Shown piece after piece: positions 47,299 through 50,606 of a stretch of DNA of 64,000 nt. Below the pieces are notes generated by a model that was not told the DNA's origin, searched no databases, and saw only the letters and a list, made by a program, of their open reading frames with translations. Made by a program: the position numbers and the translations under genes. The stretch is from Escherichia coli (lineage in GTDB: Bacteria; Pseudomonadota; Gammaproteobacteria; Enterobacterales; Enterobacteriaceae). Location of the stretch: NCBI RefSeq assembly GCF_003334765.1, contig NZ_QOWT01000004.1. One strand, 5' to 3'. Each line of letters begins with the position of its first letter. Within the stretch, counting starts at the first letter, position 1.

Positions 47299-47397
47299 AA
47301 GACAGAAACGATTTCTGATACATCAGAGTGATCTGTATTTCATTCCGGCGCACGCTAACAATTTTCAGCATCGTTTAAGGGCTTGTCTATCCCGCAC

Positions 47398-50265
47398 TTA
47401 AAAGCTGAAGCGATATCCTCCGTTGACTTGCTTCTGATCAAAGAGGTTACCCTGCGTGTAATCCGCTTCGAGATAGAATGTGTGCTGTTTGTTATACTGT
47501 GCACTGACTCCCACGCCGTTATTCCAGCCATTACCTTTGAAACTGTACTTCTCCCGGGAGTTGTTCAACAGATATTCGGTATCCCCTGAAAACTCGCGGA
47601 TAGCGCCAGTCTTCACATAGACATTCAGCTGGCTGTTGCCTGCGGTGATGTCATACCCCAGTATCATGCTGGCACGCCCCAGCAGCGATTCGTAGTGATT
47701 CAGATGTATATTGAGGCCATTACTCGCCTTCATAGTCATCTCATTCTGGTGGCTGTATGTAAGCTGGGTTTGCGGCTCTATATAGAACCCATAACCAGTA
47801 GGGGACAGGTTGAACCTCTGCCCGGCTTCCAGGGAGATGCTCATTCCATTCGCAGTGCCGTTGGCGTTAACGCCGTTGTTCTGACTGTCCAGTACGTGGA
47901 AACTATTTTTCTGGCGCGATGCTTTTATAACGAGATCGCTGTAAAAACCGTTTTGTGCCATGTAACTGGCGTACATTCCCATGTAGTCTGAACGTGCGGT
48001 ACCGTCGCCTCCGCTATAGTCCGGCGATGCATGTGTTGAGCCAATATACAGACCGACATACAACGGCATTACATCAGAGAGACGTTTATCCCCACCAAAC
48101 TGGATACCGCTGTAACCCATGTCAAAGCCGCTCAGTTTGCCACTGGCAAAGGAGTCCAGGCTTCCCCCATAACTGCGCAACCAGATATTACCGTCTTTAC
48201 TCTGATTTCGCAGGTCACCCATCCGTTGCATCAGCGTACGGTTTTCAACATAGTTCAATAAGTAACCGACATTGAGATAATTGCCGCCAGCATCTGCGGT
48301 CGTGGTGGGTTTAGGCGTGGGAGCGGGTTCAGGCGTAGGATCGGGGTTGACTATGGGAGGCTGAGCGGGAGCTGGTGTGGGTTCAGGATTAGGAGTCGGT
48401 TCCGGAACTGTCCCGGAAGCGTAAAGCTCCCAGTTAGTGCCATTTTTACGCACATCGTACAGATATCCCCCCAACTCAACCTGAGAAGACGCGCTGAACG
48501 AGGCCGCGCCGTCAGTGGTTTTTACCACTGTCAGAACTTCATTTCCCGTTGTGGCCTCGCTGCCCTGGTTGCGGATAGCCAATACGTGATTACCAGCACT
48601 ACTCCCGCTGATATTCAATAAATCCCCTTTATTATTAACGCCATTACCCTCGCCAACAACATCAGCACGCATAATAAAGGTACTGTTACCGCTCAGGTTC
48701 TCTACGTTTAATGTGGCAAATGTGCCGGCAGTTGACCCGTGGCTGGCAAAATCGACAGTTGAATGGCTCAGCGCCAGCGTGTCGAGATTAGAATTACTTG
48801 TTACGTTCCAGACGCTGTTATTCATTGCAACGTCCAGTTTTCCGCCATTGACATTATCGCTGAGGGAGGAACCTGTCCAAACCGACCCAGGGTGCATATC
48901 CAGATTGATTAGCCCACCTTTGGAAAGAACGCTACCGTTGATAAGCATACGACCCGAGGCGTTGATGCGGCTGGCGGCATAACCATCGTCATGTTGCGTT
49001 GCGATGGCCATCTGGTCGGGTGTACTCATATCAATGACCAGATCGCTCGTGAGGTCGATCTGGCTGTTGGTCATGGCATAAATTCCCCTGGCTCCTGCCG
49101 CGCCGGTGATAGCCAAACTGTCTCCGGTTATTCTACCGCCGCTGAGAGCCCACAAACCCAGCGCCAGACTGCCATTACGATCAACTGTAATATCGGTATT
49201 TTGCATGTTGACAACAGCCGTTGCCGTCTGGGCCGAGGCACCATAAGAACCGCCGGAAAAGATGCTGTTTCGTTGCGCTGCCGTGCCAGTAAAATTGATT
49301 ATCGCGTCTGAACCACTGGTGACGAGGCCACCGCCCTGCGCGGAAGAAATATGGCTATCTGCACCGATAGTGGTTGTACCACCACGAACTTCGACGCCAT
49401 TGGCCGCGGCTCCAGTTACATCAACAGTGAGTGCATTCGCGCTAACCTGGCCAAAGCTCCAGAGGCCGTGAGCATTATCGCCATTGGTTTTAATGGTACT
49501 GTTTGTTCCGAGATCGACAACAGAGTTTTTCTGTACGTTTATCCCCATGGCGCTGTAGCCCTGAACATCGATTGTCAGGTCTGTAGCCGTAAAACGCGCA
49601 GCACCATTGGCGTTATTGCCGTTGAGACCACCGATATAAACACCTGTACTTCCATCGGTCGTGATTTTACTTCCGCTTCCAAGATCGACACTGGTGCCAT
49701 AGTCATTGATGGTTAGGCCTATACCGTTCGAGTTTTCAATGGTGAATTGAGTGGCTGTTAGTGTTGAGCTATGCCCAATAATGATGCCGTCATCGTTACT
49801 CTTAATGGTGCTGCCTGTGCCTAAGTCAGCATGGGTATAGTCACCAATTAAGTTAATGCCGATGGCAGAGGTTTGACCAACAACATCTACTGTGAGTCGG
49901 TTAGCTGTCAGGGAGCTGTTTTTGCCCTGAATAATGATTCCTTTTGCATATCCAGAGGCGTCGTTGACATTGACGGTGACATCATTACCCAGGTTGATAT
50001 TGCCAGGCGTGTTTCCTGCTGGGGTCATTACACCATAGAGGTTTCCTGATGGATCGGCGGTATCTCCTGTAATTCTGTCACCATCATTAATAGTAATATT
50101 GGTGCCATATTGACTTCCTGTATCAGCAGCTATCAGCAGGGGGGAAAAGATAATTGCATTCAAACCAATAGCGCCAAATTTTATCAGTTGAATTGAGGGC
50201 GAACGGATTTTTAATTCAGCGAGACGATCTGCTTTGGTATTCCCATTGTGTTGTTTGATGCCCAT
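47398..50265 (-). CDS. ycgV: autotransporter adhesin-like protein YcgV
   Basis: 955-aa ORF with repetitive passenger domain, Pro-rich linker (PEPTPNPEPTPAPAQPPIVNPDPTPEPAPTPKPTT) and C-terminal beta-barrel ending ...GGYRFSF. Confidence 0.85.
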   Translation of the reverse strand: MGIKQHNGNTKADRLAELKIRSPSIQLIKFGAIGLNAIIFSPLLIAADTGSQYGTNITINDGDRITGDTADPSGNLYGVMTPAGNTPGNINLGNDVTVNVNDASGYAKGIIIQGKNSSLTANRLTVDVVGQTSAIGINLIGDYTHADLGTGSTIKSNDDGIIIGHSSTLTATQFTIENSNGIGLTINDYGTSVDLGSGSKITTDGSTGVYIGGLNGNNANGAARFTATDLTIDVQGYSAMGINVQKNSVVDLGTNSTIKTNGDNAHGLWSFGQVSANALTVDVTGAAANGVEVRGGTTTIGADSHISSAQGGGLVTSGSDAIINFTGTAAQRNSIFSGGSYGASAQTATAVVNMQNTDITVDRNGSLALGLWALSGGRITGDSLAITGAAGARGIYAMTNSQIDLTSDLVIDMSTPDQMAIATQHDDGYAASRINASGRMLINGSVLSKGGLINLDMHPGSVWTGSSLSDNVNGGKLDVAMNNSVWNVTSNSNLDTLALSHSTVDFASHGSTAGTFATLNVENLSGNSTFIMRADVVGEGNGVNNKGDLLNISGSSAGNHVLAIRNQGSEATTGNEVLTVVKTTDGAASFSASSQVELGGYLYDVRKNGTNWELYASGTVPEPTPNPEPTPAPAQPPIVNPDPTPEPAPTPKPTTTADAGGNYLNVGYLLNYVENRTLMQRMGDLRNQSKDGNIWLRSYGGSLDSFASGKLSGFDMGYSGIQFGGDKRLSDVMPLYVGLYIGSTHASPDYSGGDGTARSDYMGMYASYMAQNGFYSDLVIKASRQKNSFHVLDSQNNGVNANGTANGMSISLEAGQRFNLSPTGYGFYIEPQTQLTYSHQNEMTMKASNGLNIHLNHYESLLGRASMILGYDITAGNSQLNVYVKTGAIREFSGDTEYLLNNSREKYSFKGNGWNNGVGVSAQYNKQHTFYLEADYTQGNLFDQKQVNGGYRFSF

Positions 50266-50606
50266 ACCACTCCTATATAGTACCCAGACTATGGGTCTAT
50301 GGATTTTGTCATTTTGTTTAAATCAATGAATAATATCCTCTTATCATCATGATATTTGTATGGTGCAATCATGATGAGCTTCTCAGAGAATAATTCTCTA
50401 TTACCGGGCAAAATCAGGAACACAGGAATTAATATATATTTAACATCCCCCTTACAAAGGTGAGTTTATATCGAGTTATTCCCTAAGTTGTCGTTACTTA
50501 TTCCAATTCGTTACTATAAATATGGCAAAAATATTACAACAAACAGCGGTTAAAAAATTTGGTGAAGATTTTTTGTAATAATCCTAATTAGTTATGGGAA
50601 TTTCGC

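Follow-up and report, generated by a model that had tools for sequence, protein, structure and literature searches.

ycgV of Escherichia coli K-12, a known and intact autotransporter gene with a proline-rich spacer that varies in length between strains

A 64-kb stretch of Escherichia coli DNA (the window, meaning the whole stretch analysed) holds three autotransporter loci, one of which had been singled out from its sequence alone as apparently intact, named ycgV and described as a 955-aa protein with a repetitive passenger, a proline-rich linker and a C-terminal beta-barrel ending in F. This raises the question of whether the locus encodes a working surface protein or a relic about to follow its two neighbours, and whether its linker differs in length between strains. 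The ORF list places the 955-aa frame, with an ATG start, on the minus strand, a detail that the sequence-only reading had left out, and the frame far exceeds the chance expectation for 955 open codons in DNA of 50% G+C. Its sequence matches ycgV (b1202) of E. coli K-12 MG1655 and the annotated ycgV of K-12 genomes at 100% identity, which bears out the name. The frame is flanked by dhaR and ychF and is open and identical across independent K-12 assemblies, with no sign of a frameshift. The RefSeq annotation agrees that it is the sole intact locus of the three:

47398-50265, minus strand: ycgV coding sequence, 955 codons plus stop, very probably a classical type Va autotransporter (K-12 identity; Pfam/NCBIfam domains)
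13914-16561: ycgH, a pseudogene in the RefSeq annotation
17877-18220: autotransporter barrel remnant, a pseudogene in the RefSeq annotation

The gene is already known: it is ycgV of E. coli K-12, which is intact and very probably encodes a self-secreting surface adhesin that would normally be silent. ycgV already has a name and a partial characterisation in K-12; its importance hardly goes beyond good annotation, and the dimorphism of its linker described below is a small new detail with nothing new in kind.

The encoded protein divides into four parts, all on the minus strand:

50125-50265, minus strand: predicted extended Sec-type signal peptide, residues 1-47 (hydrophobicity; homologue alignment)
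48412-50124, minus strand: passenger, residues 48-618, a predicted right-handed beta-helix (AF2, Foldseek, Pfam PF03212, phmmer)
48301-48405, minus strand: Pro-rich spacer PEPTPNPEPTPAPAQPPIVNPDPTPEPAPTPKPTT, residues 621-655, 35 aa (AF2, repeat finding, strain comparison)
47398-48300, minus strand: translocation unit, residues 656-955, a predicted helix (~655-679) and C-terminal beta-barrel (AF2, Foldseek, PF03797, TIGR01414)

Both domains characteristic of this architecture were found by domain search, namely a Pertactin domain (PF03212, residues 494-615, E 1.4e-37) of the autochaperone type in the C-terminal part of the passenger, and an Autotransporter beta-domain (PF03797, residues 694-935, E 1.6e-37); the only further Pfam matches are two weak Pro-rich ones. 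The TIGR01414 match reaches 360 bits (cutoff 16) and the protein terminates in the aromatic beta-signal GGYRFSF; the intact barrel ending in F stands as described. In the AF2 model (mean pLDDT 85.5) the passenger is a beta-ladder, the Pro-rich segment is disordered, and a helix leads on to the barrel. The ladder of short strands is continuous, extends with high confidence over residues 48-618 and reaches pLDDT >90 across most of residues 50-500, and the helix at about 655-679 immediately precedes the first of the long antiparallel barrel strands, of which DSSP counts about 12-13 segments.

Foldseek aligned the model barrel with the BrkA beta-domain (TM 0.89-0.90, rmsd 2.6 A) and, more generally, with the BrkA, EspP, Hbp and NalP barrels at TM 0.79-0.90; the AIDA-I transport unit (4mee) was matched as well, and the alignment to pre-cleavage EspP (3slj) spans 319 columns. 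For the passenger, the Foldseek matches are P.69 pertactin (1dab, E 8e-12), Hap, IgA1 protease and UpaB, while the solved relatives recovered by sequence using phmmer are Vag8, BrkA, EspP, pertactin and Hbp. Collectively, the model and the domain matches point to a passenger that is a predicted beta-helix with a C-terminal autochaperone-type domain, followed by a predicted barrel translocator with a terminal aromatic residue, and we consider it very probable that in E. coli K-12 ycgV encodes an autotransporter adhesin of the classical type (type Va).

The description of the passenger as repetitive and Gly/Thr/Asn-rich was right for its composition (G 14%, T 11%, S 11% and N 10% over residues 48-618, where Cys is absent) and holds for the repeats only loosely, in the sense of a beta-helix. 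Four degenerate repeats of ~50 aa line up within residues 117-321, by eye or in a MAFFT alignment, yet self-BLAST found no significant off-diagonal repeats at the protein or the DNA level; we rejected true repeats and read these as degenerate beta-helix rungs. Likewise, Pfam at E <= 10 reported none of the AIDA families of imperfect ~19-aa repeats.

From what is known of the family, we infer that YcgV would use its 47-residue signal peptide for Sec passage and that BAM would place the C-terminal barrel in the outer membrane. The passenger would then be threaded out with its C-terminus leading. The Pertactin-type domain (494-615) would be the first part to fold and would template the stacking of the beta-helix, and the helix at ~655-679 would remain in the barrel pore. 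Once displayed on the surface, the passenger may lead to adhesion and biofilm formation. In a published display system, the YcgV beta-domain anchor displays cargo if supplied with an exogenous signal peptide (PMC13101318).

The closest well-studied relatives are those of the Bordetella pertactin family (P.69 pertactin, BrkA and Vag8), with which YcgV shares a passenger that ends in the Pertactin domain, sequence matches to Vag8, BrkA and pertactin, a barrel at TM 0.9 to that of BrkA and a passenger match to 1dab. The identity to this family is, however, only about 16% over the passenger and 26% over the barrel, ycgV is a commensal gene of enterobacteria and YcgV, as read from its sequence, lacks an RGD motif. 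Where its passenger ends C-terminally, pertactin has Pro-rich PQP repeats (‘region 2’) whose length is polymorphic between strains. Region 2 is analogous to the YcgV spacer, although the repeat units PEPTPN and PDPTPE of YcgV differ from the pertactin repeats.

By phylogeny, YcgV has been placed in Group 4 with Ag43, AIDA-I, TibA and the cryptic K-12 adhesins YfaL and YpjA; like them, it has a beta-helix predicted to run the full length and has been linked to biofilm formation (PMC9289746, PMC3796261). The differences are that YcgV carries no AIDA-type repeat in Pfam and that the annotation places no glycosyltransferase next to ycgV. Orthologues are found in other Enterobacterales, with identities of 83% in Citrobacter farmeri, 60% in Leminorella and Morganella, 56% in C. 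rodentium, 52% in Pragia (‘P.93’) and 47% in Pantoea. They share with YcgV the full-length architecture, a mature N-terminus of the form (A)D-x-GSQ and the GYRFSF terminus.

A specific doubt concerns the N-terminus, as SignalP 6.0 gives the native YcgV signal peptide a score of only 0.47 (PMC13101318). The peptide has an atypically long sequence of 47 aa and a weak -3 position (L or I, sub-optimal), whereas its overall layout is that of a Sec signal peptide: an n-region of residues 1-29 (net charge +4, scored over residues 1-36), an h-region from F30 to F40 and a c-region SPLLIAA, with predicted cleavage around A46/A47, ahead of DTGSQ. Residues 37-47 form the most hydrophobic 11-mer in all of YcgV (KD 2.45). 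We aligned K-12 YcgV with 49 further sequences, comprising alleles and homologues of other genera, and found that the leader, an n/h/c signal, is followed by a motif of four residues, mostly x-x-G-S with an invariant final Ser, which is directly preceded by Ala in 44 of the 49 and by Thr or Ser in 2 more. The leader before this motif is exactly 47 residues long in 21 of the 49, from several genera, while the homologues of Pantoea, C. rodentium and Sulfurospirillum have shorter leaders of about 30 aa. This conservation of leader length and architecture across genera answers the doubt raised in the 2026 paper. By sequence criteria and conservation among homologues YcgV thus appears to have an N-terminal Sec signal peptide of n/h/c architecture, and the absence of one, which would have undermined the sequence-only reading, was not what we observed. 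The result is relevant to users of YcgV as a surface-display scaffold.

The unusual length of the leader, and the polar character and low AF2 confidence of its first 29 residues, could also mean that the annotated start is wrong, that the real protein begins elsewhere and that the 47-residue leader is an annotation artefact. Against this, a strong Shine-Dalgarno sequence, AGGAG, is located at 50270-50274, 4 nt upstream of the ATG, no further in-frame ATG, GTG or TTG occurs between M1 and the h-region, and the same leader length recurs in the aligned sequences as given above; we regard a misplaced start as scarcely credible. With the annotated start retained, the N-terminal extension of the YcgV family is a separate, loosely conserved segment of 29 residues and is not an ESPR: the ESPR motif (PF13018) has no match in YcgV by Pfam and, among its homologues, is present only in the distant P0083 and P0084. 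Phase variation at a T4C6 tract in the signal-peptide codons was considered and set aside; only one sampled genome (L005) has a nearby frameshift, and the C6 run is short for this.

The upstream region is the following:

50266-51033, minus strand: ychF-ycgV intergenic region, 768 bp, containing the ycgV regulatory region (composition, sequence)

This region is AT-rich (about 32-34% G+C). K-12 carries a 75-nt intergenic deletion. The repressor YbdO binds a ycgV promoter fragment (PMC11681634), and we mapped the EMSA primers of that study to 50266-50391, giving a product of 126 bp, as the paper states. In addition, a ‘promoter island’ upstream of ycgV is listed in PMC3661553 and falls at about 50423-50723 of the window, after conversion of its coordinates via the sigma-54 site. 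A consensus promoter scan yielded fewer sites than shuffled controls did, and in the intergenic region none of sigma-70-like type lay on the ycgV strand. A small ORF at 50607-50789 matched no NCBIfam family above threshold. Lying behind this long AT-rich regulatory region, ycgV would normally be poorly expressed in K-12. When expression is made constitutive, ycgV reportedly leads to adhesion and biofilm formation, an effect attributed to Roux et al. in 2005. Later papers likewise assign YcgV a role in adhesion and biofilm and place it in Group 4 (PMC9289746, PMC3796261), one of them stating that the mechanism of biofilm promotion is unknown and suggesting only possible membership of the SAATs (PMC9289746).

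We examined the distribution of ycgV in E. coli and found the gene in 4119 of 5426 complete genomes, and absent from about 24%; ycgV is accessory within the species. The gap between ychF and dhaR is itself variable, containing either ycgV, an unrelated segment of 404 bp or an integrase island, and the 58-aa ORF present in place of ycgV in strain A33 matched no NCBIfam family above threshold. Among 30 matches sampled across the ranking, at least 6 no longer have an intact ycgV, owing to an IS1 insertion, one of two frameshifts, an internal stop, the 3′ deletion of O157:H7 or the loss of all but a small remnant. Two clusters, P0006 (867 aa, 3116 members) and P0014 (716 aa, 1256 members), were considered as a very common pseudogene allele and rejected. 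The P0006 representative has an 11-nt deletion in the barrel (window 47701-47711), which a junction-specific search recovered in only 5 of the 5426 complete genomes; consequently, the size of this cluster is no measure of the frequency of that allele.

Such losses and disruptions, the decay of the two other autotransporter loci of the window and the low SignalP score would be expected if K-12 ycgV were a decaying, non-functional relic with a degenerate signal peptide, never usefully expressed and bound to become a pseudogene like ycgH and the barrel remnant; later papers also describe the ycgV phenotype as one seen under induced expression. We nevertheless consider this very unlikely. Divergent intact alleles retain the full frame, with a gene-wide dN/dS of 0.15-0.22 in four comparisons with K-12 and of 0.36 between L008 and L021, and the signal-peptide codons themselves give about 0.16 in three of the four K-12 comparisons. 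All 8 additional sampled alleles are intact, full-length orthologues with 47-residue leaders exist in Citrobacter, Morganella, Leminorella, Pragia and Limnobaculum, forced expression is reported to yield adhesion and biofilm (PMC9289746, PMC3796261), and a published report describes positive selection at some ycgV sites. Intact ycgV alleles are under purifying selection (dN/dS about 0.2), and we retain the reading of ycgV as an intact adhesin gene.

The linker had been placed at about 48300-48420 and proposed as a site of length variation. The spacer falls within that range and the proposal proved correct, as two arrays of 18-nt repeats differ in copy number between strains:

48370-48405, minus strand: repeat array A, PEPTPN-PEPTPA, residues 621-632 (linker peptides of 16 alleles)
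48328-48345, minus strand: repeat unit B, cccgatcctacgcctgaa, PDPTPE, residues 641-646 (alignments; junction-specific search; 60-row sample)

The spacer is 43% Pro and 19% Thr, is predicted to be disordered or extended and has an AF2 pLDDT <50 at residues 620-649. On the linker DNA, TRF reported a period of 18 nt with 2.2 copies at 48307-48345, and three copies of a 21-nt repeat are present at 48302-48322, 48320-48340 and 48374-48394. Unit B is single in K-12 and double in 1327 complete genomes, by a junction-specific search of the 5426; the two-unit PDPTPE allele accounts for these 1327 out of about 3940 linker-bearing genomes. In a spread sample of 60 rows, 40 had the single-copy length (one of them at 302 nt), 19 were longer by 18 nt and 1 was truncated. 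Array A has two units in K-12 and one in strain AST20 (L012) among the 16 alleles compared. Furthermore, a two-unit allele (L002) and a one-unit allele (L007) are otherwise alike at all but 7 of 2751 sites, and the latter nests within a two-unit clade. Near-identical alleles that are one unit apart indicate that the spacer changes are recurrent.

Slippage or unequal recombination in the two 18-nt arrays may produce these changes, which would alter the spacer in steps of 6 residues, and the Pro-rich segment 621-655 would act as an extended spacer that keeps the beta-helix, some 570 residues long, at a distance from the membrane. It is conceivable, and in our view unlikely, that the arrays form a low-frequency contingency locus, in which steps of 6 residues, worth about 2 nm in an extended spacer, are under selection to suit the distance by which the adhesin must clear the O-antigen or capsule of each strain and the dimorphism of about 2:1 between one-unit and two-unit alleles is kept by selection rather than drift. 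The recurrent indels at two sites, the nested one-unit allele, a mosaic ycgV allele whose breakpoint lies close to the linker and the published positive-selection scans fit with such a locus; no functional effect follows from them. The polymorphism itself is real, common and recurrent, and provides a natural series to relate spacer length to autotransporter display. Beyond E. coli, the Enterobacterales orthologues have a Pro-rich spacer at the same position, which varies widely in both length and composition, from PEPEPQPEPEPDPDPNP... in Limnobaculum to a long non-Pro insert in Pantoea (P0067).

The sequence-only reading took ycgV for an intact autotransporter gene of 955 aa and for the one intact autotransporter locus of three in the window. 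Both points are borne out: the ORF list contains the ATG-started frame, which we assign to the minus strand and which shows 100% identity to the annotated ycgV CDS of K-12 genomes, and RefSeq marks the other two loci as pseudogenes.

47398..50265, minus strand: ycgV (ORF list and 100% identity to the annotated CDS)
13914-16561: ycgH pseudogene (RefSeq annotation)
17877-18220: autotransporter barrel remnant, pseudogene (RefSeq annotation)

The window is from E. coli K-12 MG1655 and starts at about 1,205,691 of NZ_CP032679.1, in the same orientation; ycgV is flanked by dhaR (convergent) and ychF. ycgH is a pseudogene by frameshift and the second barrel remnant lies 1.3 kb downstream of it, with ymgD, ymgG, ymgI and ymgJ in between; both may be fragments left from earlier autotransporter genes.

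Domain searches confirmed the proposed barrel and pertactin-type passenger, with a Pertactin domain at residues 494-615 (Pfam, E 1.4e-37), an Autotransporter beta-domain at residues 694-935 (Pfam, E 1.6e-37) and a TIGR01414 match over residues 513-955 (NCBIfam, 360 bits against a cutoff of 16). The barrel, a PF03797-type domain, is intact and ends in F as described, the C-terminus being GGYRFSF. The passenger (residues 48-618) consists of 14% Gly, 11% Thr, 11% Ser and 10% Asn with no Cys, and its description as repetitive holds for degenerate ~50-aa beta-helix repeats and in no further sense. Among solved structures, those related in sequence are Vag8, the BrkA barrel, the EspP barrel, pertactin and Hbp. 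An AlphaFold2 model built on a 50-sequence alignment (mean pLDDT 85.5) comprises the following parts:

Leader: low confidence
Residues ~48-618: passenger, a ladder of short strands, high confidence
Residues 620-649: disordered stretch, coincident with the Pro-rich segment
Residues ~655-679: helix
After the helix to the C-terminus: long antiparallel strands

Foldseek searches of the PDB matched the C-terminal domain to the BrkA beta-domain (TM 0.89-0.90, rmsd 2.6 A) and further to EspP, Hbp, NalP and AIDA-I, and the passenger to P.69 pertactin (E 8e-12), Hap, IgA1 protease and UpaB. YcgV thus has all the parts of a classical type Va autotransporter: a signal peptide, a beta-helix passenger with its Pertactin domain, a barrel, and a helix whose predicted place in the pore was checked only indirectly. 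Its closest likeness in both sequence and fold is to Bordetella pertactin, BrkA and Vag8. Reviews place YcgV in 'Group 4' with Ag43, AIDA-I and TibA, but it is without AIDA-type repeats. Earlier work had already established the gene, the class it belongs to and its likely role; what is new is the comparative support for a signal peptide and the two-array spacer polymorphism.

YcgV has been treated as 'leaderless' with a SignalP 6.0 score of only 0.47 (PMC13101318, 2026). Its N-terminus reads MGIKQHNGNTKADRLAELKIRSPSIQLIK-FGAIGLNAIIF-SPLLIAA-DTGSQ, in which a positively charged n-region (net +4) precedes residues 37-47, the most hydrophobic 11-mer of the entire protein, and a Pro stands six residues ahead of the small-residue site. 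The ATG has a strong Shine-Dalgarno sequence 4 nt upstream of it (AGGAG, 50270-50274), and the sequence offers no alternative in-frame start between this ATG and the hydrophobic core. Full-length homologues, between 83% and 43% identical, are found in Citrobacter, Leminorella, Morganella, Limnobaculum, Pragia, Pantoea and Sulfurospirillum. All 14 homologues read whole carry a hydrophobic core, with a site of the A-x-A type directly before the conserved mature N-terminus (A)D-x-GSQ, and the E. coli LLIAA/DTGSQ aligns exactly at this site. Among 49 sequences aligned with K-12, the residue before the motif is Ala in 44 and Thr or Ser in 2 more; exactly 47 residues precede the motif in 21 of them, as in K-12, and 30 residues in 12 (Pantoea). 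The extension is not an ESPR, since Pfam gave no PF13018 match to it. We conclude that YcgV carries a Sec signal peptide with a predicted cleavage site, so that the leader on which the reading of an intact gene depended is present as judged by sequence and homologue alignment. A plausible cause of the low SignalP score is the unusually long leader together with the weak residue at -3 (L or I).

Following the family pattern, we infer that the 47-aa leader would take YcgV over the inner membrane via Sec and that BAM would put the barrel into the outer membrane. The passenger would then cross C-to-N with the Pertactin-type domain first to fold, the helix would stay in the pore, and the Pro-rich segment would serve as an extended spacer from the barrel to the beta-helix stalk. 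Constitutive expression of YcgV is reported to lead to adhesion and biofilm (Roux et al. 2005, as cited in PMC9289746, PMC3796261 and PMC9110714), and its anchor displays cargo once supplied with a signal peptide (PMC13101318).

The linker DNA had been proposed as a site of length variation, and strain comparison supports this with two variable 18-nt arrays. The Pro-rich peptide (residues 621-655) is encoded at 48301-48405, where TRF finds a period of 18 nt at 48307-48345 and a 21-nt repeat is present in three copies.

48328-48345: unit B, cccgatcctacgcctgaa, PDPTPE; copy number varies
48370-48405: unit A array, PEPTPN-PEPTPA; one unit lost in strain AST20

Alleles with two copies of cccgatcctacgcctgaa measure 2886 nt, not 2868 nt, and encode 961 aa. 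Using a junction-specific 36-mer unable to seed on one-copy alleles, we found the second unit B in 1327 of 5426 complete E. coli genomes, the linker region overall being found in 3942. Across 60 rows spread down the ranking, 40 had the single-copy length (one being 302 nt), 19 had 18 nt more and 1 was truncated, with no other length in this sample. AST20 has one unit A fewer and two B units, because of which its total length is unchanged. Linker copy-number changes are recurrent, since the near-identical alleles L002 (two B) and L007 (one B) differ, linker apart, at only 7 of 2751 sites, and a neighbour-joining tree puts L007 inside a two-unit clade. Furthermore, allele L004 is a mosaic, its 5′ 1850 nt identical to L002 and its 3′ part K-12-like, which places a breakpoint near the linker. 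In the E. coli allele P0004 (877 aa), a 78-residue in-frame passenger deletion (about residues 106-183) fuses two degenerate ~50-aa repeats, and this junction suggests that the beta-helix, too, can shorten by repeat-mediated recombination.

A ycgV match is present in 4119 of the 5426 complete genomes, covering at least 80% of the gene in 3936; eight matches are on plasmid-labelled records. Out of 30 matches sampled across the ranking, at least 16 are intact and at least 6 disrupted. Disrupted alleles are the following:

H1: IS1 insertion
L004 and L005: frameshifts
L007: internal stop
L006 (O157:H7 NE 1169-1): 3′ 43% deleted together with dhaR
H30: 118-nt remnant

The L006 deletion takes all of dhaR and leaves the truncated passenger gene adjoining dhaK; other O157:H7 genomes, such as PV15-279, keep a full ycgV with a two-unit linker. 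IS1 insertions in ycgV or its upstream region occur in several genomes (H1, H51, H59). An 11-nt deletion (atatacatctg, 47701-47711) shifts the barrel frame to give an 867-aa product and is found in only 5 of the 5426 genomes. Gene-wide dN/dS is 0.15-0.22 in four comparisons of intact divergent alleles with K-12 and 0.36 between L008 and L021; where strains keep ycgV, purifying selection therefore maintains it. The few signal-peptide codons give values similar to the gene-wide ones. In published scans, ycgV is one of the genes reported to have positively selected sites (PMC9110714).

The ychF-dhaR gap differs in content among E. coli strains. In K-12 it holds ycgV and its AT-rich leader, and 3735 bp (47299-51033) separate the stop codons of ychF and dhaR. 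Where ycgV is absent, the gap may hold other DNA. In A33 the whole segment is replaced by an unrelated 404-bp segment encoding a 58-aa lipoprotein-like, His/Pro/Gly-rich ORF; in S10EC and 20AR0192 a tyrosine-integrase-led island has inserted immediately behind ychF, and the annotation shows no tRNA gene nearby.

The 768-bp region upstream of ycgV has 32-34% G+C and figures in a published list of 'promoter islands' (PMC3661553). Work on an APEC strain showed binding of the repressor YbdO to a 126-bp upstream fragment, which we place at 50266-50391, and a rise of about 4-fold in ycgV mRNA on ybdO deletion (PMC11681634). The intergenic region also contains a small hydrophobic ORF that diverges from ycgV (50607-50789, plus strand; 59-60 aa in K-12) and may encode a small membrane protein. 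An independent gene caller called it on a Logan contig too, and its N-terminus is polar, with a single transmembrane-like segment after it. Strains agree over about the first 47 residues but vary at the C-terminus, which gives lengths of 51, 59, 62, 67 and 84 aa, and one strain has a frameshift; NCBIfam gave no match. A 75-nt segment present in 6 of 9 alleles compared is missing at 50754/50755 from K-12 and close relatives; the deletion, bounded by the direct repeat CTGGCnAGA, falls within this ORF and could alter ycgV regulation. A perfect 26-nt palindrome, AAAATCCACGCAATTGCGTGGATTTT (50952-50977), 57 nt past the ychF stop, is probably the ychF intrinsic terminator, bidirectional in form. Within the barrel-coding part of ycgV, the sigma-54 binding motif TTGGCTCAACACATGCA (48028-48044, minus strand) has been reported as intragenic site IS15 (PMC4591121). 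Elsewhere in the window, gathering-threshold Rfam matches identify the C0299 sRNA (24942-25020) between hlyE and umuD and, near the window end, an rdl-family antitoxin RNA (63636-63701) in an ldr/rdl type I toxin-antitoxin region.
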